Origin: a virus
Lineage: Duplodnaviria > Caudoviricetes
Length of the DNA stretch: 34,412 nt
Direction: 5' to 3' (one strand)
Virus record (IMG/VR): IMGVR_UViG_3300020449_000326
Coordinates: 1-34,412 of that record
Shown here: one piece after another, positions 1 to 34,412 of the stretch
Layout of the letters: each line of letters starts with the position of its first letter
Numbering within the stretch: the stretch's first letter is position 1
Notes under the pieces: generated by a model
What the model was told of the DNA's origin: nothing
The model's database searches: none
What the model saw: the letters and a program-made list of their open reading frames with translations, nothing else
Made by a program: the position numbers and the translations under genes

Positions 1-756
1 TCTGATTATTGGACCCAAAAAGTTGTATCGTGGTTTCCTAAACATGAAATCCAACAAATGGCCATGATGTTTGGCTCGCAAGAAACAATTCACGCAGTAG
101 CATATTCTTATTTAAATGAAACACTCGGACTCGAAAATTTCGAAGCATTCTTACACGAACCCGCCACGGCCCAGCGCTTCGATAATCTTGTTAGTTACTC
201 TGGTAACAACCCTGTTGGGATTGGCAGGTCTCTCGCTGTATTTTCTGCATTTGCAGAAGGCGTTAGTCTCTATTCCGCTTTTGCTGTGCTATATAGCTTT
301 CAGTTGCGTAATTTGCTCAAAGGCATTGGCCAACAGATGAAATGGAGCGTAAGAGATGAATCACTACATTCTAAAATGGGATGTCAGTTGTTTAGACATA
401 TGTGTAAAGAAACTAAAGGATTACAAGATGATTGTTATGAACACGTTATTAAAGCAGCAAAAACAATGCTTAAAGCAGAAGAAAGATACATTGATAAAAT
501 GTTTGAACAAGGAGATATTGAAAACCTCAAATCTTATAACCTTAAACAATTTATCAGGAAACGCCTTAACGAAAAAATTGTTGAGCTCGGTTACTCAAAC
601 AGTGGGAAATACTTTGAATATGACGAAGTTGGAGCGAGCAGTTTGGACTGGTTCTACCATCTTACCGGGGGGCACACTCATACTGATTTCTTTTCTATTA
701 GGCCGACTGATTACTCAAAAGCTAATGAAGGTGAAGACTTTGAAGATATTTGGTAA
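1..756 (+). CDS. nrdB: Class I ribonucleotide reductase beta subunit (5'-truncated by window edge)
   Basis: Frame open from base 1 (SDYWTQKVVSWFPKHEIQQMAMMF...). Di-metal ligands QETIH, FAEGVSLY and RDESLH; Tyr after the first His (IHAVAY) fits class Ia; acidic C-terminal tail TDYSK...FEDIW. Confidence 0.95.
   Translation, partial: SDYWTQKVVSWFPKHEIQQMAMMFGSQETIHAVAYSYLNETLGLENFEAFLHEPATAQRFDNLVSYSGNNPVGIGRSLAVFSAFAEGVSLYSAFAVLYSFQLRNLLKGIGQQMKWSVRDESLHSKMGCQLFRHMCKETKGLQDDCYEHVIKAAKTMLKAEERYIDKMFEQGDIENLKSYNLKQFIRKRLNEKIVELGYSNSGKYFEYDEVGASSLDWFYHLTGGHTHTDFFSIRPTDYSKANEGEDFEDIW
116..340 (+). CDS. Candidate overprinted membrane protein (74 aa) in +1 frame of nrdB
   Basis: ATG-to-TGA ORF spanning a GC-elevated patch (about 46% at 121-360 vs about 29% at 361-540). 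nrdB uses codons rare in this genome here (CTC, CCC, GCC, ACG, CGC). Two hydrophobic segments. Confidence 0.45.
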   Translation: MKHSDSKISKHSYTNPPRPSASIILLVTLVTTLLGLAGLSLYFLHLQKALVSIPLLLCYIAFSCVICSKALANR

Positions 757-1113: not shown

Positions 1114-2845
1114 CAATTGGGTTAAAGGTAAAGATTATCCTTCATGGGGTGATAATGATGTTTATAAAAAAACTATATCAGGTGGTTATCTTATAAATGG
1201 TGAATCGCCTCGTGATGCATATATGCGTGTTGCTAAAACTGTAGCAAAACGTTTATATAAACCAGAACTTGCAGATAAATTTTTTGATTATATATGGAAA
1301 GGCTGGTTGTGTTTAGCTTCGCCTGTGCTTTCTAATACAGGCGCAGACAGGGGTTTACCTATATCTTGTTTTGGTATTGATGTTGCTGATAGCATACAGG
1401 ATATTGGTAATAAAAATTTAGAAATGATGTTACTTGCAAAACACGGTGGGGGTGTAGGTATCGGGGTTAATATGATTCGTCCTGCCGGAGCTAAAATTAC
1501 AGGTAATGGAACTTCAGACGGCGTTGTCCCTTTTTGCAAAATATATGACTCAACTATACTCGCAACCAACCAGGGTTCCGTTAGAAGAGGAGCTGCAAGC
1601 GTTAACATCAATATTGAACACGACGATTTTGAGGAGTGGCTTGAGATTAGAGAACCTAAAGGAGATATCAATAGACAATCACTTAACCTGCACCAGTGTG
1701 CTGTCGTTGGCGATAAGTTTATGCGAAAGCTTGAGCTTGGAGATCCCGAAGCAAGAAAAAAATGGTCAAAGCTTATACAAAAACGTAAAGCAACTGGAGA
1801 ACCTTATATCTTATTTAAAGGAAATACAAACAAAGCTAATCCAGAAGCATATAAGAAAAATAGTTTAAAAGTTCATATGACTAATATATGCAGTGAAATA
1901 GTATTGCATACCGATGAGTCACATAGTTTTGTTTGTTGTTTATCTTCTGTTAATTTAGATAAATATGATGAATGGAAAAATACTAATCTTATATATGATG
2001 CTACATGGTTTTTAGATGGAGTGCTTGAAGAATTTATTCAAAAAGCTAAAAACATGAAAGGTTTTGAAAATGCTGTAAGATCTGCTGAAAAAGGTAGAGC
2101 TATAGGATTAGGTGTATTAGGTTGGCATAGCTTATTACAAAAAAGAGGTATTGCTTATGAAAGTTTATTAGCACAATTTAAAACACGTGAAATATTTTCA
2201 AAAATAAAAATTGAAACTGAACGTGCTTCAAGAGCATTAGCTGAAATATATGGAGAACCATTATGGTGTGTAGGTACAGGATTTAGAAATACTCATTTGC
2301 GTGCAATAGCTCCAACTGTAAGTAATTCTAAATTAGCAGGTAATGTATCACCAGGTATTGAGCCTTGGGCTGCAAATGTATTTACAGAACAATCTGCTAA
2401 GGGTACATTTATTAGAAAAAATAACGAACTTAAAAAAGTATTAAGAAAAATTGGGATTGATAACAAAGATACATGGGATAAGATTCTTACCGATGGTGGA
2501 TCTGTCCAAGCAATTGATGCACTCAACGGATGGTATTATGATGAAAGAGGAAGACTTAACCAAGAAGATGGAGAGCCAGTCAAAAACGTGTTTAAAACAT
2601 TTAAAGAAATAAATCAACTGGAGTTAGTTAGACAAGCAGGTATAAGACAAGATTACGTTGACCAATCGGTATCACTTAATCTTGCTTTCCCTTCTGAAGC
2701 AACTCCGCGTTGGATAAATCAAGTACATATGGATGCATGGAAACATGGAATAAAAACTTTGTATTATATGCGTACTGAGTCTGTACTGAGAGGAGATATA
2801 GCAGCAGCAGCTATGGATCCTAATTGTTTAAGCTGCGATGGTTAA
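1103..2845 (+). CDS. nrdA: Class I ribonucleotide reductase alpha subunit (short form, no evident ATP cone)
   Basis: SPVLSN, PISCF, GGGVG, RRGA, TNICSEI (catalytic N-C-E), AIAPT, KTLYY and C-terminal CLSC motifs. Confidence 0.96.
   Translation: MWNNNWVKGKDYPSWGDNDVYKKTISGGYLINGESPRDAYMRVAKTVAKRLYKPELADKFFDYIWKGWLCLASPVLSNTGADRGLPISCFGIDVADSIQDIGNKNLEMMLLAKHGGGVGIGVNMIRPAGAKITGNGTSDGVVPFCKIYDSTILATNQGSVRRGAASVNINIEHDDFEEWLEIREPKGDINRQSLNLHQCAVVGDKFMRKLELGDPEARKKWSKLIQKRKATGEPYILFKGNTNKANPEAYKKNSLKVHMTNICSEIVLHTDESHSFVCCLSSVNLDKYDEWKNTNLIYDATWFLDGVLEEFIQKAKNMKGFENAVRSAEKGRAIGLGVLGWHSLLQKRGIAYESLLAQFKTREIFSKIKIETERASRALAEIYGEPLWCVGTGFRNTHLRAIAPTVSNSKLAGNVSPGIEPWAANVFTEQSAKGTFIRKNNELKKVLRKIGIDNKDTWDKILTDGGSVQAIDALNGWYYDERGRLNQEDGEPVKNVFKTFKEINQLELVRQAGIRQDYVDQSVSLNLAFPSEATPRWINQVHMDAWKHGIKTLYYMRTESVLRGDIAAAAMDPNCLSCDG
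1506..1868 (+). CDS. Candidate overprinted protein (120 aa) in +1 frame of nrdA
   Basis: 120 stop-free codons from ATG. GC about 43% at 1501-1740 vs about 29% at 1921-2160. Confidence 0.4.
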   Translation: MELQTALSLFAKYMTQLYSQPTRVPLEEELQALTSILNTTILRSGLRLENLKEISIDNHLTCTSVLSLAISLCESLSLEIPKQEKNGQSLYKNVKQLENLISYLKEIQTKLIQKHIRKIV

Positions 2846-2859
2846 TATAAATTAATAAT

Positions 2860-3069
2860 ATGGGAAAGCGATTTACATTTGCGGATGCAAAAAAAAGAAT
2901 TTTGGATTTAGAAGATGAATTAGCAAAAGTTCAACAAAAAGCTGGAAACGTTATTTTAGATACCAAAGATAATGTTTTTACTAATAAAGAACTTAAGAAA
3001 ATTAGATTCTTAGAACTATGGTCTATATTAGGCCCTATAGTTGGTTTGCTAATTGGTTTGATATTTTAA
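2860..3069 (+). CDS. Small hypothetical protein with coiled-coil N-terminus and C-terminal TM anchor
   Basis: 69-aa ORF with AT-rich leader and terminal hydrophobic helix LWSILGPIVGLLIGLIF. Confidence 0.75.
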   Translation: MGKRFTFADAKKRILDLEDELAKVQQKAGNVILDTKDNVFTNKELKKIRFLELWSILGPIVGLLIGLIF

Positions 3070-21115: not shown

Positions 21116-22711
21116 TTAAGCTTTAAATAATACGAAATTATTAGCAGCTTGAGTAATTAAACATCTTTCACTTAAGTAATTTACTTTCATGATATCGATA
21201 TCAGAACTTGGTGAATCAGTTCCAACAGATCCTGTAATCCAAGATTTGTTTTTTCTGTTCTCAGTTTCTGATGCTCTATATCTAATGTGTAAGAATGGTC
21301 TTTTGATATTTTGGCCTAACTGTTGATCGTAAACAGTAGAAGTTCCAGCAGGAACTAATACACCTTCAACATCACCAAAACCTCCACGAGTTGACCAGTC
21401 ATTTAAGTATTTCCAGTCAGTTTTGTAAAAGTCATAAGAACCTCTTCTATATCCAGTAAACCCTAAATTAAGAGCCATATCTGCACTGTTATTAAATACT
21501 CCATAAGAAGTACCTTTTGTAACACCCGCAGCACCGGCATAATTACCGTTTTGCATTGCAAGAATGTCATCAATTTCTAAAGATAGCTCTCTATTTAAAA
21601 ACAGCATATTTTCTTCAATTGATCCCTGCTTGTCTAATTGCTTAAGTACAGCATCAAAATCTGTAAGTCCACCATTACCTGCACCAGCAGCAGCTTGGCC
21701 ACCAAATCCAGTATAAACGTTTCCTCTTGATTCTAATGCAGCGAAGAACCCTTCAGTACCTCTTGCATTTTGAGCAGCTAATGGTCCGCCAAAAGTACCT
21801 AATGTAATTGCAGCACCTCCAGAGGCGTATTTAACGCCTTCAACCATTGACATTTCTAGCCAGTCTTCCCATCTAAGTCTTACTTCATGCTCAGACTTTA
21901 TATACCATAAATATCCACTAGCTCCATTTTCAGAAGTAACTTCAATCCAACCAATCTGAGCTGTGTCAGATCCGCTGATTTGATAGTTTTCTTTTAATAT
22001 AATAGGAGCATTAGTAAATGTAGCATATCCTGGATCTAAGCTCTCAGTAAAGTTTCCTGTACCTTTAGCAAATTCAGATCCATAGCAAATTGCAGTTACT
22101 CTTTCAGCAGCTAATACTCCACCGTGAGCTTCATAAGCTTGGATTTGGAACATTTGACCACCAGTAGTACCACCACCGCCAACTCCAACATTAGTACAAA
22201 CTCCTTTAATAACAGCACCCGTTCCACCAACTGCTGAAGTAGCATTTGTTTGAACTTGAACCATTACAGTTTGTCCTATTTTAAAGTTAACTTGTTGTGT
22301 TTGAGTAGCTGGGCTAACTCCTAAACTTGCAGGTTGCGTAGTTGGTACTTCAAAGTTAAGTACACCACCTGATGCTCCAGCAGCAGCGATAACCGCTTGT
22401 CCACCACCAGCAACAGGCATAGCGCCTGCAGTTCCTCTTGGGATTACATTTACATATCTAGTGTGTAATCTGCCTTGCTCAGTCCATATAATTTGGTCTG
22501 AAGTAGAAGGCATCTCCGCAGATACCATACGTAAAAAAGAACCGATTGATCTGTTTCCATATCTTTCAACTTCTTTTTCGTATACATCTGGTAAATATTG
22601 TTGTGTCCATTGATCAAAATTTGTATTTGTGAAATCAATGTAGTTTCCGGAGTACAACGTCTTTGTTTGAGTCGGTTGTAATGCAGCCGGAATTCCGCTT
22701 GTAAAAGCCAT
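21116..22711 (-). CDS. Major capsid protein
   Basis: QQYLPDVYEKEVERYGNR, WTEQGRLH, GSDTAQIGW, GYRRGSYDFYKTDWKYLND and LSERCL...ANNF motifs. Portal-scaffold-MCP synteny, followed by a strong terminator. Confidence 0.9.
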   Translation of the reverse strand: MAFTSGIPAALQPTQTKTLYSGNYIDFTNTNFDQWTQQYLPDVYEKEVERYGNRSIGSFLRMVSAEMPSTSDQIIWTEQGRLHTRYVNVIPRGTAGAMPVAGGGQAVIAAAGASGGVLNFEVPTTQPASLGVSPATQTQQVNFKIGQTVMVQVQTNATSAVGGTGAVIKGVCTNVGVGGGGTTGGQMFQIQAYEAHGGVLAAERVTAICYGSEFAKGTGNFTESLDPGYATFTNAPIILKENYQISGSDTAQIGWIEVTSENGASGYLWYIKSEHEVRLRWEDWLEMSMVEGVKYASGGAAITLGTFGGPLAAQNARGTEGFFAALESRGNVYTGFGGQAAAGAGNGGLTDFDAVLKQLDKQGSIEENMLFLNRELSLEIDDILAMQNGNYAGAAGVTKGTSYGVFNNSADMALNLGFTGYRRGSYDFYKTDWKYLNDWSTRGGFGDVEGVLVPAGTSTVYDQQLGQNIKRPFLHIRYRASETENRKNKSWITGSVGTDSPSSDIDIMKVNYLSERCLITQAANNFVLFKA

Positions 22712-24078: not shown

Positions 24079-26526
24079 TTAAGATGCTTCAAATCGGCCC
24101 ATATCAAAACCGCCTAAAGTATCATTACCTTTTGATTCAAAATCTTTAACTGGTTCATCAGTATTTGGTGCACCACTTAGTTTTCCAGATGTTTTAAGTT
24201 TAACATCTTCTCTTATAAGTTCACGCTGCAGCATTGATTTATTGCTTCTTTCCGCTAACTCCATTTGAGATTTTAATTCAAGTTCTTTAAGTTGAACATT
24301 TAAATTAAATTCATATTGCATCAATTCTTTTTTAGCCCTTGTTTCTATTTCCATTTTTCTAATGTCCATTTCATTTTCAGCTGTTGATAATTGAATTTTA
24401 GATTCTGTTTTTATTTGTTCTGATTGTGCTTTGGCCTCTTCAATTTGTATTTGTGCTTGTCCTTGAGCTTCTGCTTGAGCTCTTGATGCAGCTTGTGCTT
24501 GTGCTTGGTCTGAAGCTTGTTTTGCAGCTCTTCTAAATTTTAGCAATTGATTAGCTAATTTTAAGTTTTTAACTTCTCTAACATCAATTGCATCTTCTAA
24601 ATGTATACTATCTTTTGATAAAGCTACTTGTATATTGTTTTCTAAAATTTGTTTTTCATTTTCATCAGGTTCCAATTCTAAAAATATACCAAAGTCATGT
24701 AAATTTAAATTAGTTAATTCTTCTAATGAACCCACAGAAAATTGCCCTAAAGAATCTATAAACATTTCTTTAGTAGGGTGATATTCTAATACGTCTTTAA
24801 ATCTTAAAGAAATAGCTTCAGCTAAACAAGTGGTTATAAACATACTAGCTTGCAATATGTGTCTTGTTGCTACATTACTATTTGCAGCAGCTAATTTTTG
24901 TACACCTACAAGAGAATATTGATCTGGATCTGCCGCATCCCTTGCTTCATTTAAACCAGTAACGTCTCTTATCATTTGTATATATTGATTATAAGCACCA
25001 ATTAATACTTGTATTTGATTACCACCACCTCCTGGTAATTCTTGAATAGGTATAGCACCATTATTTCTTTCACCTTCCATAGTCAAAGATCTACCAATTA
25101 TAGATCCTGTTTGGAAATACATATTTAATGCTTCTTGAGGATTATAATTTGTACCGTTACCTAAATCAATCTCAGCAAGACCATCAGCGTCAACATATAC
25201 ACCTGATGGTGTCATTCTTTGTATAGCTTGCTGAAGTTTCAAATGAGTTAACTGAATTAAATCAGCATATGCTGTCATTTTTGAAACTAAAGATGTAATG
25301 TTGCCTTTATACATTCTAGGTGCACTAACAACATAATTCATCATTACTTTATTTATATTATTAGTAGGTCTTATCATATTTGTAGCTTTTTGCCATTTTA
25401 AAATATAATCAGTACCTAATATTAATACACCTTCATAAACAACCTCTCTTGTTTGTTTTACTTTTTCAAATCTAGTTCTTTTATCTTTAGGAGGATTAAA
25501 AGAATCATCTTTTGCAATAGCTTTTTTACCACCGGTTGGAACTTCTTTTATTTTGTATACATCATGTTCCCATGTTTTCCAATTAAAATATAAAACATTT
25601 AATGTATTTTTTGCAGCTAGCTCACTTTGATTATAAAAATTATGATTAGGATCATTATAATCATTCCAGCGTGAACTTTTATTTACAAGTTCTTCTATTT
25701 CTTCATTAGGTAATCCTGGAAATTCTTTTTTAAGTTCATTAACTTTTATACATTTTACTTCACCAAAATAATAACAATCTTGAAAATTAGGATCGTCAGT
25801 ATAAGAATAAACTAAATTAGCTGGATCAACATAATCAACAACAACACCGTCGGTATTATTAAAAGAATGTTTAGTTGCACCTATTCCTAAAACGGTTAAA
25901 TCATAATCAACACGTTTTTTAATTTCTTCATATTTATTAGCTTTAAAAATATTATCTAAAGCTTCTTCTTCTGCCATTTCAATACCTTGCTTATAGTTAA
26001 GCTGCATATATAGTTCAAGCTCTTCTGTATTAGCGGGTAATTCATTTACAGCAAAATTTCTAGCAGATACTCCTAATTTTGTTTCTATATCTAATAATAA
26101 ACTAGCTGTATTTAAATCTTGTTGTACATCATTAACAAATTTAGTTCGTTTACCAGTAGAAATATTATCTTGACCAACCGCTTTAATAGAAAATAATCTA
26201 TCTTGCATTCCATTTACAACTAAATCAACAAACTTAGGTATTATTGGAACTGGTTTCCAATCTAAGTTAAGATAAGATAAATCACCATTAATTGCAAATT
26301 CATCTTTATATTTTCTAATTGATTGTTCTCCACGAGCATATAATCTTAGCCTATGAGCCTCTTGTCTAGAATTGTAAAATTTCCCTATGCCATTGTTATC
26401 TTTATTGAACCATTCTTGCTCAATAGCTCTTCCCACAGATAACCCATACTTTTCGGTTTGCTTTTCTGCATCGGAAACTGCTTGACTTGGAAATTGTGTT
26501 AAAACTTTTCCTTTTAATTTTGCCAT
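24079..26526 (-). CDS. Portal protein
   Basis: RLYARGEQS, LDWKPVPIIPKFVD, YVDPAN and RDVTGLNEARD motifs, Gln-rich C-terminal coiled coil, directly downstream of terL. Confidence 0.9.
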   Translation of the reverse strand: MAKLKGKVLTQFPSQAVSDAEKQTEKYGLSVGRAIEQEWFNKDNNGIGKFYNSRQEAHRLRLYARGEQSIRKYKDEFAINGDLSYLNLDWKPVPIIPKFVDLVVNGMQDRLFSIKAVGQDNISTGKRTKFVNDVQQDLNTASLLLDIETKLGVSARNFAVNELPANTEELELYMQLNYKQGIEMAEEEALDNIFKANKYEEIKKRVDYDLTVLGIGATKHSFNNTDGVVVDYVDPANLVYSYTDDPNFQDCYYFGEVKCIKVNELKKEFPGLPNEEIEELVNKSSRWNDYNDPNHNFYNQSELAAKNTLNVLYFNWKTWEHDVYKIKEVPTGGKKAIAKDDSFNPPKDKRTRFEKVKQTREVVYEGVLILGTDYILKWQKATNMIRPTNNINKVMMNYVVSAPRMYKGNITSLVSKMTAYADLIQLTHLKLQQAIQRMTPSGVYVDADGLAEIDLGNGTNYNPQEALNMYFQTGSIIGRSLTMEGERNNGAIPIQELPGGGGNQIQVLIGAYNQYIQMIRDVTGLNEARDAADPDQYSLVGVQKLAAANSNVATRHILQASMFITTCLAEAISLRFKDVLEYHPTKEMFIDSLGQFSVGSLEELTNLNLHDFGIFLELEPDENEKQILENNIQVALSKDSIHLEDAIDVREVKNLKLANQLLKFRRAAKQASDQAQAQAASRAQAEAQGQAQIQIEEAKAQSEQIKTESKIQLSTAENEMDIRKMEIETRAKKELMQYEFNLNVQLKELELKSQMELAERSNKSMLQRELIREDVKLKTSGKLSGAPNTDEPVKDFESKGNDTLGGFDMGRFEAS

Positions 26527-26528
26527 AT

Positions 26529-28763
26529 TTATTTTATTAACTCGCTTTGATACCCTTCATTTTTGTATCGTGAAAATTCAAAATCTAATTTTTTAACTGT
26601 TCTATCTGTACTAGGTTTATATAAATGTTTTCTACAAGCCATTATAGCTAAACCACTACTTATAGATGCATCAAAAGATGTTCTACGTGAAATATCAAAC
26701 CTTGCCCAGTCTTCTAAAGTTCTTTGAAAATACATATTACCATAAGAATCATCATTTCTTCCAACATATTCTTCAATATAAGATTCAATAGCAGCTGCAT
26801 GAGCTTGCTTAATGTCTTCAGAACTATTAGGTATACCTCCTAATTCTAGTTCAGTTTTAGATAAAGCACCTTTTAATTTATCAGGTCTATTCATAGAAAA
26901 ACCTCTATACCCTCTTCTTTTAATATGATATAGTAATCTTGGTTTATTATTTTCAACTAATATAGGCATACTATAAAATATGCATGCCATTAATACATCT
27001 TCAAAAAATATTTCTGCCGTTTGTGGTCTTGCTATATATTCTAAAAAAAATTTAGTATTAGGTACATCGCTAGTCATAGTAAATGTAGTTAACCCATGTA
27101 AAGACCCATTCGAACCACCACCCCCAACTGTTCCTGATATATCATAAGGATCACACCCAAAAGCACCTAATCCATCATTACCAGGATATTTTATACCATT
27201 TTTTTCAATAATATTATTTTGTAATTGATCTGGAGGTAACCAAGATATTTTAAATCTACCGTTTTGTGTTGGTGTCCATATTACTTTACTATCTTTTATT
27301 CCATTTTGCCAAGAAAAAGCTCCTCGTACAATATGGCCATTAAATTCCATTTCTTCATTATAATCTATTTGTTCATAAATTTTAGTTAAATTAAATAAAG
27401 AATTTAATGTTTCATCTCTAAATGCATGCTTTTCTGATCTTGGAAATTGTCTATAATATTCATTTAAAGCATCACTATCATTTTTTAAACCTTCAACCTC
27501 ATTCTCCCAGTGTTCAAGGACTCCCGTATAGATGAGTTCACCATCAATTCCTTCAACCGGATCTGATGGAGTGGTGAAGACAGGATATCCATACTTATCA
27601 ATAAATCCTTCGAAACCCCATTCCATAGGTATGAACAAAGAGTATAGTCCACTTGTAGTCTGGCCATTGCGATTTCTGTTTGTAACATCTGAATTATAAT
27701 ATAATTTTTTAAATTTATCACCGCCCTTATCTAATGCATTAGAAGTGGAGCCCATCATACATTTACCAACTACTTTCGACCCGAGGCGGAGACACGTTTT
27801 TGTAACCCTCCAGTTATTGAGGATGTTGTCCGGCCTCTCCCATTTACCCGATTCGTCGTGGATGAGGAGTTGTAATTTCTCCCCGTCGTATGAATTGTCC
27901 CCCGTGTTCTTCCAGTCAATTGTGGTGTCCAATCCGTCCTGTATCTCAGAGGGGGCGGGGCTGGTGGCTCGTATCGTATTCCTCGTGAGCCTCCTTGATG
28001 GTACTTTGTACGAGAGTTCCGTTTTTGGACGTTCCATACCATCCTGTATTGGTTTAAAAAAGAACGGGTAATTAGTCGAGATTGGGACCACCTTATCCGT
28101 GAACATCTTCTTAGCGTCTGCTCCACTCTTAGATAAGATCCCAAATCTAGAGTCTTTTGAAGTTGTAGCCTGATGAACACATTCTGATGACGCCATAAAG
28201 GAGAAACCAGACCGTCTATTCTTAAGGTAGCACATCCCATAGCATCTGCTATCAGCCTTGCATGCTTCCCAAAAGTAGAAAAATATCCTGTTTGCATGTC
28301 GAAAGTCTGGGGAGCCCACATCGATCTTAGTCCAGTTGAGATAAATATAGTGCGATCCTGTAAGGTAGCACGGGGTACCGTTGCACATGAACCAATAACC
28401 ATCATTACGATAATTAAACTCATTATCGATGTAACTATAATATTGGTCTTTAATATCTTCAGTATAGCTTTGAAAATCATATAATGTTTTTATTCTTGTT
28501 AATGATTGTGGTCTTTCCCTTTTTATAAATACTTGATTTTCTTTTTTTAAATTTTTACCGTGTATTTTTTTAGGGGTTTGAGGTATACCTACCTTAAGAC
28601 CTTGTATTTCATATATATCACCTAATGTACCGTCCTTACTAATAATAACACAATCTAAATCACTATTATATCCATATTTAAATTTTTTATTTTTATTTAA
28701 ATTTTTGGTATATTTTTTATCTAAATGATCTGTATGTATTTTATATAAAGTTTGTTTATACAT
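26529..28763 (-). CDS. terL: Terminase large subunit
   Basis: Walker A-like KNRRSGFS, Walker B LLIHDESGKW, coupling motif GSTSN, nuclease motif GCDPYD, and LVENNK. Confidence 0.93.
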   Translation of the reverse strand: MYKQTLYKIHTDHLDKKYTKNLNKNKKFKYGYNSDLDCVIISKDGTLGDIYEIQGLKVGIPQTPKKIHGKNLKKENQVFIKRERPQSLTRIKTLYDFQSYTEDIKDQYYSYIDNEFNYRNDGYWFMCNGTPCYLTGSHYIYLNWTKIDVGSPDFRHANRIFFYFWEACKADSRCYGMCYLKNRRSGFSFMASSECVHQATTSKDSRFGILSKSGADAKKMFTDKVVPISTNYPFFFKPIQDGMERPKTELSYKVPSRRLTRNTIRATSPAPSEIQDGLDTTIDWKNTGDNSYDGEKLQLLIHDESGKWERPDNILNNWRVTKTCLRLGSKVVGKCMMGSTSNALDKGGDKFKKLYYNSDVTNRNRNGQTTSGLYSLFIPMEWGFEGFIDKYGYPVFTTPSDPVEGIDGELIYTGVLEHWENEVEGLKNDSDALNEYYRQFPRSEKHAFRDETLNSLFNLTKIYEQIDYNEEMEFNGHIVRGAFSWQNGIKDSKVIWTPTQNGRFKISWLPPDQLQNNIIEKNGIKYPGNDGLGAFGCDPYDISGTVGGGGSNGSLHGLTTFTMTSDVPNTKFFLEYIARPQTAEIFFEDVLMACIFYSMPILVENNKPRLLYHIKRRGYRGFSMNRPDKLKGALSKTELELGGIPNSSEDIKQAHAAAIESYIEEYVGRNDDSYGNMYFQRTLEDWARFDISRRTSFDASISSGLAIMACRKHLYKPSTDRTVKKLDFEFSRYKNEGYQSELIK
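27485..27688 (-). CDS. Candidate overprinted 67-aa protein (+1 frame of terL)
   Basis: ATG at 27688 after a very AT-rich stretch. GC about 41% at 27481-27660, falling to about 26% at 27301-27480 just past its stop. Confidence 0.45.
   Translation of the reverse strand: MLQTEIAMARLQVDYTLCSYLWNGVSKDLLISMDILSSPLHQIRLKELMVNSSIRESLNTGRMRLKV
27770..28480 (-). CDS. Overprinted 236-aa putative lipoprotein (+1 frame of terL)
   Basis: Basic plus hydrophobic signal ending IGS-C32, and a Pro/Arg/Ser/Thr-rich tail. GC about 53% at 27781-28020 vs about 23% at 28501-28740 within the same terL gene. Confidence 0.7.
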   Translation of the reverse strand: MIFKAILKILKTNIIVTSIMSLIIVMMVIGSCATVPRATLQDRTIFISTGLRSMWAPQTFDMQTGYFSTFGKHARLIADAMGCATLRIDGLVSPLWRHQNVFIRLQLQKTLDLGSYLRVEQTLRRCSRIRWSQSRLITRSFLNQYRMVWNVQKRNSRTKYHQGGSRGIRYEPPAPPPLRYRTDWTPQLTGRTRGTIHTTGRNYNSSSTTNRVNGRGRTTSSITGGLQKRVSASGRK

Positions 28764-29011
28764 TATTTAATTCTATTTTCAACACCCAAGAAAGCTTTTG
28801 ACTTTTTGTTATCTTTTTTCTTATCAGATATTTCTTCAATTTTATCTATAATTTTTAAAGAATCTTCAATTGCAACCCATTTAGCTTGTGCTGCAGTTTT
28901 AGCTTTTTCAGGATCAAGTTCATTAAGATCTATATTTTGCCTAATTACTTTTTCAAGTTCTACTAAAGCTTTTTCAGCAGCTAATATAACCTTGTCTCTC
29001 TTTTGTTCCAT
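28763..29011 (-). CDS. Putative terminase small subunit
   Basis: 82-aa helical ORF, TAATG-coupled to terL. ELDPEKAK.AA.AK..AI.DS..I motif. Confidence 0.6.
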   Translation of the reverse strand: MEQKRDKVILAAEKALVELEKVIRQNIDLNELDPEKAKTAAQAKWVAIEDSLKIIDKIEEISDKKKDNKKSKAFLGVENRIK

Positions 29012-29564
29012 ATTTTATTGTTATGTGATGTGAAAAAATACGATATAATTTTTCTCCTTCAATATTAAACTCATATTCTGAATCAGGTGTAAAGCCCACC
29101 ACGTCTCCAACGGACACTCCTAATTGATTTAATTTATGATTACTATATGTAAGTATACCTAAAAGATTTTCGTCTGTTTTAAGAGCCCATTTATCTTTTT
29201 TATATAAAGGCTTTACAAAACAAAAATTAGGTAAACTTCTCCATTTATTATTTCTTTTATAAGCAAATATTTGATCATCAGAAACTAAATATTCATTTTC
29301 ATTTAAAAAACTTGAAGAATTTTTTTGAATTCCTTCTACATCAATCCATCTTCTAAAAACATTATGATGCACAATAACCTCATCGTTTTCTTTTAATTCT
29401 GAATTATTATATAATGGTAACTTTACTATTTTACCTATACGATTAACAAACATATAATCTCTTTCAGTAACTTCTGTATTAACGACTAATTCCTTACCTT
29501 CAACATCAATGGTGTTGTTGTAGCGATTTTCAGTAGATATAATATATTCAAATAAAGATTGCAT
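28974..29564 (-). CDS. GroES-like co-chaperonin (tandem SH3-like barrels)
   Basis: DEVIVHHNVFR, FCFVKP and GDVVGF.P.SEYEF.IEGEKLYR motifs typical of phage GroES-like proteins upstream of terminase. Confidence 0.65.
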   Translation of the reverse strand: MQSLFEYIISTENRYNNTIDVEGKELVVNTEVTERDYMFVNRIGKIVKLPLYNNSELKENDEVIVHHNVFRRWIDVEGIQKNSSSFLNENEYLVSDDQIFAYKRNNKWRSLPNFCFVKPLYKKDKWALKTDENLLGILTYSNHKLNQLGVSVGDVVGFTPDSEYEFNIEGEKLYRIFSHHITIKYGTKERQGYISC

Positions 29565-29795: not shown

Positions 29796-30146
29796 TTAAT
29801 ATGTCCAAAGAGTTATAGGTGGAGCATCAGGATATCCAATACCTACGTGAACAAAATTATTTTTTCTGCTAACTCCTATTCTTGTAAAGCCAACGTCCAT
29901 GGCAGCTTTAACTAATTTAAATGTTGCCTCGCCTCCAATGCTTGCAATATCAACGGCGGCACCATAAGCATGTTCTCCCGGTGCTTTTTTCTTTGCTTCT
30001 ATTGGATGATCCGGACTTCTATAACTAGATGTAATTTTTATAGGTGATCCATAAGCTTCTCGTAAATCATCTAGCATTTTAAGAAGCTTTTTATCCATCA
30101 TTTTATATTGATTAAATTCAGATTCATTAAAATATTTTAAAGGCAT
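29796..30146 (-). CDS. Peptidase M15 family endolysin
   Basis: YF..SEF, LDDLRE.YG.PI.ITS.YR, H..G.A.DI and FVH zinc-ligand pattern. Confidence 0.85.
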   Translation of the reverse strand: MPLKYFNESEFNQYKMMDKKLLKMLDDLREAYGSPIKITSSYRSPDHPIEAKKKAPGEHAYGAAVDIASIGGEATFKLVKAAMDVGFTRIGVSRKNNFVHVGIGYPDAPPITLWTY

Positions 30147-30147
30147 T

Positions 30148-30297
30148 TTATTTACTATTTAATTTATTTTTTATACCTATTACGGTATATACTATTGTTA
30201 ATAATAATACTACTGTTTGTAGCAGCGGATTTATATCTGGCATTATAGAGAAGGTTATACCACCTAAACTTATGCCATAAATTCTTAAGTCTTGCAT
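30148..30297 (-). CDS. Small holin-like membrane protein (49 aa)
   Basis: MQDLRIYG... with hydrophobic segments and a basic C-terminus, adjacent to the endolysin. Start chosen at the ATG just after the upstream stop. Confidence 0.6.
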   Translation of the reverse strand: MQDLRIYGISLGGITFSIMPDINPLLQTVVLLLTIVYTVIGIKNKLNSK

Positions 30298-30298
30298 T

Positions 30299-30709
30299 TT
30301 ATTTGTGCATTTTATTTCCAAAGACTTTCTCCACACCTCGCGATCCGAAATAGCCTCCGATTACTATTGTTAATAAACCGGTTATTGAATCAAGTGGATA
30401 ACCTAAGTACCACCCAATTACATAGCTTACTGTTAAAAATATTAATGTTAAAGGACGAACATTAGCCGCAAGCCATGCTCCTGAGCCAGCATCCGCCACC
30501 CATCTTTCTGTTGTCCCATCTATTTCAGCTCTTTCTAGTTTTAGTTTTTCTAATGCAATTTCTTTATCACCATCAGACATTTCACTGCTACCTATTATAG
30601 CCTCTATAATACCACCGGCTGGTGTGCCACTAGCAATTGATCCAACTACAGTTGGTATTTTTTTTAATAAAAATTTTCCAACTGCAGTATCTTTAAATTT
30701 CTTTTTCAT
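30299..30709 (-). CDS. Holin, 3TM/GTA-holin-like family
   Basis: RW.AD..S..WL..NVRP.TL, TM helices and GYFGSRG.EK signature. Confidence 0.75.
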   Translation of the reverse strand: MKKKFKDTAVGKFLLKKIPTVVGSIASGTPAGGIIEAIIGSSEMSDGDKEIALEKLKLERAEIDGTTERWVADAGSGAWLAANVRPLTLIFLTVSYVIGWYLGYPLDSITGLLTIVIGGYFGSRGVEKVFGNKMHK

Positions 30710-32474: not shown

Positions 32475-34412
32475 TTAAGTTGTATATGTTCCTGATGCTT
32501 TAAAAACTAATATAGTGTTTGTTCCTTCTGTAACAACACCCGGTGATCCTGTTATTGTTCCTGAATAATCCGCTGTAGGCATTTTAAGTATTATAACACC
32601 TGAACCTCCTGGTCCACCACTTCCTTGACTACCATATTGAGTTCCAGAACCGCCACCTCCTGTATTTGCAGTACCAGCATTACCAGGATTAGAACCAGTA
32701 ACACCATCGGCACCGCCTCCTAAACCGCCATCTCCACAATCTGAAGCACTATAAGCTGCACCACCACCGCCACCGGCAAAATATACAGATCCTCCACTTA
32801 CTTCTCCTACACTTTGACTAGATGCATTTGTTGTTGAAATTATAGTTGAAGTTAATCCAACACCGCCATCACCAGCTTGTATGTTAGGATATGATCCTGA
32901 AGGAACTCCTCCAGCTGCACCAGCACCACCACCTCCTGCACCTATATAATCGTTATATCCAGTACCGTTACCACCAGCATTACCGTGTCCGGTTAAAGGT
33001 GAAGAGTTTCCTTGATTACTAGCTCCTCCATTTGTGTTTGTACCATTTATAGTAGCACCACCGCCACCGCCGCCAGAACCACCAGCATTTGCGGTTGGTG
33101 TGGCAGGTGTGTCAGCGCCACCTCGACCACCACCATTTGAAGTATGAGTTGCTCCGCCTGCTATAGCAATTGAAGAATTATTACCATCATTACCTGCTGT
33201 ATTATAACCACTATTTGCAATAGCACCTCCAGCACCAACAGTTATAGTGTATTGGACACCAGAAATTTGATTAGCAATTGTACCTGTTAATAAACCACCA
33301 GCACCTCCGCCACCATTACCTGCACCTTGTGCAGCACCACCGCCACCTGCAACAATTAAAGCATCTATACTATAAGGAGCGGAACCTAAATCGTCATCAG
33401 ATGCAGCAGAAGATATAACCCAACCTTCAGTTGAATCTGTAAATACTAATGTTAATGCTTTATTATTTGCATTTAATATTTTATTAACAGTTCCTCCTCT
33501 TATTTTATTACCATTAGGGTTAATGGTTAAGTTATTAGTAGCAAATGTTCCTGTATAATCTACAATTGAAACTTCATCTCCTAATGATGGAGATGCGGGT
33601 AAAGTTACCGTTATAGCTCCTCCTGCTGTATTTACAAAATAACCTTCACCAGCTGTAGCTGTAAAATTAGAGGTTTGAATACTTGAGTCCCAGCTAACTC
33701 CAGATCCTGATCCTGACGATGAAGCTTTTATATGAACAACTTCTATTTTAGCACCATTACCTGGCGCTGGAGAAAATGTTAAAGTAGCACCACTAATTGT
33801 ATATGTAGATTTATCTTGATATACTCCATCTATATATACTTGAGTATTGTTTTTATTAGAAACAGATAAAGTAAGATTAAAGGCTGTAGTTGAACCATTG
33901 CCTGTAAAATTATCAACCGCTACTACATTTCCGCTTATAGATACAAATTGAATAAGCTCTACAGATGTACCATTACCAGGGGCAGTTGCCATTGTAACTG
34001 TACTACCGCTTGTTGTATAATTATCTTTAGATTGATATACACCATCTATATAAATTTGTACATTATTTTCATTAGCAATAGCTGAACTAGTATTAAATGT
34101 AGTAGTTGAACCATTACCAGTATATACATTTTTTTCTATAGTTACAGTTCCACTACCACCACCAGTAACATCAATTGTTTTTGTTGCTCCTGTACCTGAA
34201 GCAGTTACTCCTGATCCTGTAAAATTTAAAGTTGTGGCTAGTGTAGATAAAGGAGTTCCTTCGTCTTGTATTGTTATACCTTGTGAACCACCCGATGCAG
34301 CTATAGTAACTTCCTGTGCCCCATTTCTAGTAAGCGTTACATTTGATCCAGCAGTTAATTGAACAGTAGAATTATCACTACCAGAACCAGACGTTAAATT
34401 TATATCAACATT
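32475..34412 (-). CDS. Tail fibre with Gly-rich C-terminal domain (5'-truncated; at least 645 aa in window)
   Basis: Frame stays open from 33992 to the window end (NVDINLTSGSG...). Two GNGSTT..VYIDGVYQ modules, a GYFVNT.GGAITVTLPASP module and a GGGGAGG-rich domain. Confidence 0.85.
   Translation of the reverse strand, partial: NVDINLTSGSGSDNSTVQLTAGSNVTLTRNGAQEVTIAASGGSQGITIQDEGTPLSTLATTLNFTGSGVTASGTGATKTIDVTGGGSGTVTIEKNVYTGNGSTTTFNTSSAIANENNVQIYIDGVYQSKDNYTTSGSTVTMATAPGNGTSVELIQFVSISGNVVAVDNFTGNGSTTAFNLTLSVSNKNNTQVYIDGVYQDKSTYTISGATLTFSPAPGNGAKIEVVHIKASSSGSGSGVSWDSSIQTSNFTATAGEGYFVNTAGGAITVTLPASPSLGDEVSIVDYTGTFATNNLTINPNGNKIRGGTVNKILNANNKALTLVFTDSTEGWVISSAASDDDLGSAPYSIDALIVAGGGGAAQGAGNGGGGAGGLLTGTIANQISGVQYTITVGAGGAIANSGYNTAGNDGNNSSIAIAGGATHTSNGGGRGGADTPATPTANAGGSGGGGGGATINGTNTNGGASNQGNSSPLTGHGNAGGNGTGYNDYIGAGGGGAGAAGGVPSGSYPNIQAGDGGVGLTSTIISTTNASSQSVGEVSGGSVYFAGGGGGAAYSASDCGDGGLGGGADGVTGSNPGNAGTANTGGGGSGTQYGSQGSGGPGGSGVIILKMPTADYSGTITGSPGVVTEGTNTILVFKASGTYTT
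33729..34128 (-). repeat. Tandem duplication of an approximately 60-aa fibre module
   Basis: TGNGSTTTF...NNVQIYIDGVYQSKDNYT.SG.TVT..TAPGNG.SVELI vs TGNGSTTAF...NNTQVYIDGVYQDKSTYT.SG.TLT..PAPGNG.KIEVV. Confidence 0.8.

Follow-up and report, generated by a model that had tools for sequence, protein, structure and literature searches.

What is a long second reading frame doing inside the packaging ATPase gene of a tailed phage, and is it likely to encode a protein? The question arises in a virus record of 34.4 kb, which was analyzed as a whole and is referred to here as the window, and whose minus strand carries tail, holin, endolysin, terL, portal and capsid genes. The terL gene (26529..28763; this and all further features are on the minus strand unless indicated) encodes a 744-aa large terminase (PHROG 6681, E 1e-173) and hosts two hidden +1 frames. 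Upstream of terL lie an 82-aa gene (28763..29011), which is likely to encode the small terminase subunit (terS) judging by its position and had no match in family scans (PHROG, Pfam); a gene for a GroES-like co-chaperonin (28974..29564, PHROG 13932); a peptidase M15 endolysin gene (29796..30146; PF08291, PHROG 894); a gene for a 49-aa protein with a hydrophobic stretch and no family match, probably a holin-like membrane protein (30148..30297); and a holin gene (30299..30709, PHROG 3427). The portal gene (24079..26526, PHROG 6547) follows downstream. TerL shared 62% identity with its closest annotated relative, from an uncultured spring phage, 44% with Elemovirus, 38% with Cellulophaga phi13:2 and 30–40% with phages of Cellulophaga, Maribacter and Tenacibaculum, and a PDB sequence search with TerL gave no match. 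Because Elemovirus and the phages of these three genera are among the closest annotated TerL relatives, the host is probably a member of the Flavobacteriaceae. Among marine phages of Flavobacteriaceae, PMC5332604 describes a “group 2” related to Cellulophaga phi38:1; Pachyviridae, Pervagoviridae and Elemovirus have a homologous TerL (37–44%) and share the gene order GroES-terL-portal with the window, whose phage probably belongs to this group. Nearly all of the 20 sequencing runs containing the window stretch carry a marine label.

An initial annotation had pointed to a 236-codon +1 ORF within terL. It is present at 27770..28480, in the +1 frame of terL codons 95–331, and is referred to here as ORF1; the part of terL beneath it presumably contains both the Walker A- and the Walker B-like motif. 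ORF1 contains no +1 stop, as compared with a mean of 11.3 and a minimum of 4 in 5000 synonymous shuffles of terL, and the longest open +1 run was 239 codons in terL versus 167 in any shuffle. The GC content of terL is 54.5% in the best 200 nt and 44.4% over the whole of ORF1, versus 21.6% upstream and 31.0% downstream, and third-position GC climbs from about 0.1 to 0.4–0.68 from codon 126 onward. The initial annotation had called this the strongest GC anomaly in the window (about 53% versus about 23%). Those values roughly agree with the best 200 nt and the 5′ part of terL, respectively, but the anomaly is the strongest only at third codon positions (0.70 in the ORF1 region versus ≤0.47 in the other 22 genes examined), since a Gly-rich tail gene (about 32860–33160) equals the ORF1 region in raw GC. 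TerL had also been said to read oddly under the hidden frame. Both quoted pairings of the two frames are there, but the TerL word WFMCNG also occurs in MW202828, a relative without the hidden frame, and is therefore not in itself evidence for a hidden gene.

Conservation of Cys32 and of the open frame in related terL genes was among the checks that the initial annotation had proposed. We compared 80 terL loci at 66–85% identity, which with the window made 81 sequences; 79 of these cover terL codons 126–200 (two partial sequences were left out), and those with no +1 stop over these codons were classed as carriers. The frame was open in 55 of the 79 genes, the remaining 24 having 2–6 stops, and, as described below, all 19 genes of the clade close to the window keep a lipoprotein pattern. 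Because codons 126–200 define the classes, codons 201–264 were used as an independent check: carriers had 15 stops there versus 151 expected, these sequences being related and not independent, and non-carriers had 46 versus 69 expected. A further 44 loci comprised 24 carriers, 18 non-carriers and two partial sequences, and 24 long records (two counted before) comprised 17 carriers and seven non-carriers, two of the seven with a single stop; the three sample sets may overlap. The frame was absent from all seven annotated phage records examined. Among the 55 carriers, the end of ORF1 varied between terL codons 225 and 331.

Recent import of the segment from a high-GC phage had been named in the initial annotation as the finding that would speak against a nested gene, and it was rejected. 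In carriers, GC1 and GC2 of the ORF1 region equal those of relatives without ORF1 and only GC3 is raised, and L001 was the nearest neighbor of the window in the trees of both the overlapped (ATPase) segment and the nuclease segment. Moreover, GC3 fell past the end of ORF1 in 29 of the 30 genomes in which ORF1 ends by codon 300 (0.40 inside, 0.24 beyond). The GC excess thus sits at the third position of terL and ends where ORF1 ends, which argues that the region was not imported.

Two protein searches with ORF1 returned 242 matches, of which 241 were +1 shadows of terL, as defined by a match to a profile of +1 translations from non-carriers; the other was a repetitive protein (E 7e-4). No stand-alone homolog was found among these matches, and the host frame is both older and wider in range than ORF1. 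The lack of a stand-alone homolog and the preponderance of terL shadows indicate that ORF1 arose by overprinting. Family scans gave no PHROG or Pfam match, and the best score in the ESM Atlas (0.79, to unnamed and “lipoprotein” clusters) was under a useful level. Presence of ORF1 required eight changes on the nuclease-domain tree (67 rows) and four on the ATPase-segment tree (75 rows). There may have been a single origin on the latter, and the patchy presence on both trees is consistent with losses and recombination. Two genomes, G067 and G069, show apparent decay of ORF1, in which the hydrophobic leader is kept, the Cys motif is changed and the frame is closed near codon 196–198; in both, a stand-alone lipoprotein gene adjoins the endolysin gene.

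The N-terminus points to what the product may be. Residues 1–31 (28388..28480) form a predicted signal peptide with a Lys-bearing n-region, an uncharged h-region and a V-I-G-S lipobox, directly followed, as the initial annotation had read it (IGS-C), by Cys32 (28385..28387), the predicted lipid acceptor on the lipoprotein pattern. The Cys32 codon is set by TerL Met126. Because the Cys codons of both ORF1 clades follow from a TerL Met, the Cys alone is not evidence for a lipobox; the evidence for the predicted lipobox is in the codons flanking it. In the close clade, the ATG start lies at terL codon 95 in 18 of 19 genes and wobble T reaches 0.68 over the h-region (terL codons 110–124). In all 16 dereplicated genes of this clade, the Cys codon is preceded by TTC for a TerL Phe (background 0.11), giving Ser at −1, and the rare forms TGC and AAC, each in 15 of the 16, give Ala-Thr after the Cys. 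A PROSITE-type lipoprotein pattern, with a basic n-region, an h-region and a lipobox Cys at position 15–35, was matched by the window and by 19/19 close-clade genes, but by only 2 of 36 far-clade carriers. In the far clade, the h-region lies at terL codons 128–139, followed by a Cys at codon 140, with mostly Thr at −1; its hydropathy is 2.5 versus 1.0 expected, as compared with 0.77 versus 0.76 in non-carriers. This sister clade has relocated the hydrophobic core and Cys of ORF1 14 codons downstream. RNA structure or a hairpin was rejected as the cause of the fixed codons (z about 0; double change in 1 of 18 pairs, control rows made invalid by gaps being left out).

These data also bear on the reading that GC-rich import, codon bias or RNA structure left the frame open as a by-product, with no useful protein made from it. 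In AT-rich genes, +1 translations are by default hydrophobic (40–50% expected) and the Cys is forced by TerL, as that reading would have it; however, only GC3 is raised while GC1 and GC2 match non-carriers, no RNA folding signal was detected, and the two clades put the h-region at different sites, each just ahead of a Cys. We therefore regard a by-product as extremely improbable. ORF1 is almost certainly a real translated gene, and the comparison strongly supports an overprinted, selected gene with a predicted lipoprotein-type N-terminus.

The start context of ORF1 scored 0.4, at the low end of the range for the genes of the window (−1.7 to 6.9), and its ATG ranked third among the 48 out-of-frame ATGs in terL. 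The protein is very probably exported via its N-terminus, and lipidation is likely, if less assured. S-C-A past the h-region could serve as an alternative signal peptidase I site. The leader in relative G051 has 18 residues, just 11 of them uncharged, and is too short for a membrane anchor. This matters for the reading of ORF1 as an exported lysis-timing regulator (antiholin-like or endolysin-binding), whether lipidated, cleaved by signal peptidase I or anchored in the inner membrane. The far clade without the canonical −1 residue (2/36 fitting the pattern), the 31-residue leader of the window with its one confident helix (residues 2–33) and the holin and endolysin genes just upstream in the close clade would suit such a regulator, but a rare codon fixes Ser at −1 in 16/16 genes, and in G051 and the far clade the h-region is short, which is more in line with a lipoprotein leader than with a membrane anchor, so that we consider this reading unlikely. 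Bacteroidetes surface-lipoprotein export signals have an acidic consensus, and a K-x-D-like signal was not seen by eye in the C-A-T-V-P-R that begins at the ORF1 Cys. In PMC6143338, MKWD is an example of such a signal, and the Bacteroides lipoprotein BtuG2 has the lipobox VFGS with Cys32, a close parallel to V-I-G-S and Cys32 of ORF1.

Downstream of the Cys, the mature part comprises a core (28090..28384) that is kept in all carriers, the shortest ORF1 ending at terL codon 225, and a tail of variable length (27773..28089) that is basic, R/S/T/G/P-rich and, by composition and AlphaFold pLDDT, disordered. In the window, hydrophobic residues made up 30% of the core versus 49.5% expected and 14% of the tail versus 41% expected, both expectations being conditioned on the TerL residues and the absence of stops. 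Arg made up 16% of the tail versus 3.4% expected, and Arg, Ser/Thr, Pro and Gly are enriched in the mature part, which has 35 K+R versus 8 D+E. In non-carriers, hydrophobic residues in the same region matched expectation. The mature part thus appears to be selected to be polar, basic and disordered. The AlphaFold model of ORF1 had a mean pLDDT of 46.7, mostly <50 in the mature part and confident only for the leader helix at residues 2–33. Mean hydropathy of the tail was −1.2, the sole hydrophobic segment in the window's protein is N-terminal, and no C-terminal transmembrane helix was found in ORF1. A PPAPPP hinge noted initially could not be upheld: this motif lies at residues 172–177, far from the Cys, and a similar proline run occurs only in L001.

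ORF1 lies downstream of the holin and endolysin genes on the same strand. These two genes are just upstream of terL in the close clade, and in far-clade genomes the lysis genes are often many kb from terL. The initial annotation had found no spanin evident near the holins and endolysin, and neither the window nor G066, a close relative with a complete genome, showed a second lipoprotein gene or, by a hydropathy scan, an i-spanin-like gene. In G004, a complete non-carrier (L088–L091), two spanin-like gene pairs flank the endolysin gene. Among the 24 long records, 22 of which were picked through nrdB, a stand-alone lipoprotein gene adjoined the endolysin gene in 4 of 7 non-carriers versus 2 of 17 carriers (Fisher p 0.04, the genomes not being independent and one of the two counted by eye), and a lipoprotein gene was present anywhere in the record in 5 of 7 versus 5 of 17 (p 0.085). 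The non-carriers G009, G077 and G078 have no lipoprotein gene beside the endolysin gene, and G077 has no detected endolysin gene. One endolysin-linked lipoprotein family is built like ORF1, with a lipobox and an N/S/R/P-rich tail. One stand-alone family occurred in 29 records, 20 with terL, of which 16 cover the codons of the carrier test. ORF1 was also present in 11 of these 16 (two of the 16 being weak lipoprotein matches, one per class). Strict complementarity was thus rejected: because 11/16 records have both, ORF1 is not a strict replacement of the stand-alone lipoprotein. Stand-alone lipoproteins of a family with N/S/R/P-rich tails (L107:6779–7165, L128–L174) are encoded directly after the endolysin gene in 4 of the 16 long loci examined and in G008.

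Co-occurrence with lysis-linked lipoproteins in 11/16 records would also fit a lipoprotein that excludes superinfecting phage or shields progeny, either by blocking a receptor or by using its basic tail to retain incoming DNA in the periplasm. T5 Llp is a precedent for an exclusion lipoprotein, and both the patchy presence of ORF1 (8 and 4 tree changes), with its variable ends (codons 225–331), as expected of an accessory arms-race gene, and its net positive charge are in keeping with such a role. However, ORF1 belongs to a late packaging operon and is not predicted to contain a folded domain for receptor binding, which leaves exclusion a possible but doubtful explanation.

As a whole, this information leads us to propose, tentatively, that ORF1 is a lysis-accessory lipoprotein that weakens the host outer membrane. 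Translation of ORF1 would begin on the late transcript at ATG 28480, and the product would be exported, lipidated at Cys32 and, having Ala at +2 and no acidic export signal, sorted to the side of the outer membrane that faces the periplasm. Its flexible cationic tail (35 K+R versus 8 D+E) would bind anionic membrane or wall material and, after the endolysin has removed the wall, disrupt or bridge the membranes, so that ORF1 would take the place of a spanin late in infection. Absence of the gene from 24 of the 79 relatives and from 7/7 annotated records counts against a role in lysis.

The initial annotation had drawn an analogy with lambda Rz1, which holds for the nesting and the lipobox but not for an i-spanin host gene, an i-spanin partner or a conserved proline run. 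ORF1 resembles Rz1 and the other embedded o-spanins described by Kongari et al. 2018 (PMC6139136): like the predicted ORF1 product, these are lipoproteins whose genes are nested out of frame in a late gene and missed by annotation, and they have an unstructured periplasmic part and extra cysteines. ORF1 differs from them in that its host gene encodes a packaging ATPase, no i-spanin partner was found, the mature part has about 200 residues and there is no conserved proline run. The predicted outer-membrane lipoprotein signal of an o-spanin is present in ORF1; the i-spanin gene in which an o-spanin gene is embedded, or which it overlaps or adjoins, was found neither in the window nor in G066. 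Could ORF1 nevertheless be a true o-spanin, with an i-spanin partner that is unrecognized or encoded in the unseen half of the genome? A nested +1 lipoprotein gene, extra cysteines and a disordered chain are features of embedded o-spanins (PMC6139136), and by comparison with complete relatives the window is about half of a 60–65-kb genome. On the other hand, the complete relative G066 has no i-spanin-like gene by hydropathy scan, the host gene is terL and not an i-spanin gene, the proline run is not conserved and the second hidden frame encodes no membrane helix; a true o-spanin is thus improbable.

The lysis-accessory lipoprotein that we propose would share with the u-spanins such as T1 gp11 that a single lipoprotein could handle the outer membrane alone; but ORF1 has no C-terminal membrane helix and has mature cysteines, which are absent from all 58 u-spanins in PMC6139136. 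According to PMC8776804, u-spanins are annotated in flavobacterial phages. By its predicted features, with no i-spanin partner and no C-terminal membrane helix, ORF1 is not a classical spanin as PMC6139136 defines o-spanins and u-spanins. According to bioRxiv 10.1101/515445, the phiKT gp28 disruptin is cationic, has 56 aa and is predicted to form an amphipathic helix; it comes from a phage which, like that of the window, has no recognizable spanin. ORF1 is likewise cationic, but it has an export leader and is long (236 aa), polar and disordered in its mature part; a short cationic amphipathic helix was thus not found in it. No description of a gene nested in terL was found among titles and abstract openings in a literature collection with few subscription journals, or in PMC10136315, PMC8776804 and PMC4276943. 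Nested lipoprotein genes and nested lysis genes are already known, and what is new is that a packaging ATPase gene contains a putative lipoprotein gene, whose lipobox has moved in one clade, together with another hidden frame. In phiX174, too, a gene acting on the envelope (E) is read in the +1 frame of an assembly gene to which it is unrelated (D); ORF1 differs in that it belongs to a tailed dsDNA phage with its own holin and endolysin, and in that its product is predicted to be exported.

The second frame, ORF2 (27485..27730), occupies the +1 frame of terL codons 345–426, with candidate starts at GTG 27721, ATG 27688 and ATG 27667, and is preceded by forced +1 stops at terL codons 331–344. 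The +1 frame over codons 345–402 was open in 78/81 and 42/44 relatives, whether ORF1 carriers or not; ORF2 is therefore more widespread than ORF1. Sites capable of a stop are few in ORF2, and stops occurred at Val360 in 1 of 76 sequences (base rate 46%) and at Ile388 in 1 of 68 (base rate 66%), although the same Val and Ile codons were used freely where no +1 stop results. Rare codons are also fixed: TTG at Leu376, in 67 of 74 sequences, yields a conserved Cys (27635–27637). The start is not common to all, an ATG being present by codon 360 in 57 of 75 and a GTG at 347 in most of the others. The ORF2 product was predicted to be helical (pLDDT 76.7), without export signal or membrane helix, and the model had no match among viral structures. 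Of 34 matches from a protein search, 14 were inspected, most of them being terL fragments with a frameshift. Several other causes of the conservation were rejected: no TAnnTTTG promoter occurs on either strand in 27485–27730, a scan for sigma-70 promoters gave fewer sites than shuffles, RNA structure gave no signal, and the motif for a frameshift at the T/A run ahead of ORF2 is not invariant. ORF2 is probably translated. In L086, the terL of the cultured phage Cellulophaga phi38:1, an 87-codon Met-initiated +1 ORF at the position of ORF2 may be due to chance.

Other genes of the window were found to have open +1 frames. In nrdA, a 120-codon +1 ORF (1506–1868, plus strand) had ≤2 stops over codons 135–255 in 54 of 70 relatives, mostly the terminal stop, and 7–11 in the other 16; it is likely to be another overprinted gene, with a predicted soluble product. 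Two +1 ORFs with raised GC3 lie in nrdB (356–760 and 116–340, plus strand); the former had ≤2 stops in 36 of 81 relatives and 4–9 in most others, and the latter was rejected as a hidden gene because it is not conserved. The capsid gene (21116–22711, minus strand) is open in the +1 frame over its first 86 codons, with a GC3 of 0.33, above most late genes. A 69-aa protein encoded at the end of the replication module (2860–3069, plus strand) has a helical N-terminal part and a C-terminal membrane helix, and similar genes occur in G051 and G061. In RNA run X8, an identical contig covering 28375–28600 had a depth of 274 versus 8–20 for identical contigs farther into terL, the step lying just past the Cys32 codon. 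This is at most a weak hint, as the data are contigs without strand or frame, and the depth is not evidence because contigs cannot rank the parts of a gene. A more speculative and rather improbable extension is that ORF1 and ORF2 form a +1 two-gene cassette in terL, a lipid-anchored polycationic tether with a small helical cysteine peptide, for breaching the outer membrane of Bacteroidota without a spanin, in genomes where nrdA is overprinted as well and the +1 frames of core enzymes would routinely supply new genes.

TerL is a standard marker that is assumed to be single-coding. In a widespread group of marine phages, many members appear to be dual-coding over about a third of it; the terL patterns matched an estimated 11,000 or so stored stretches in the viral collection. 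Dual coding biases codon and tree analyses of terL. Since natural variants show ORF1 kept, lengthened or lost, and its lipobox moved, gene birth by overprinting becomes testable in this family. If ORF1 acts in lysis, it would also bear on how phages without spanins break the outer membrane.
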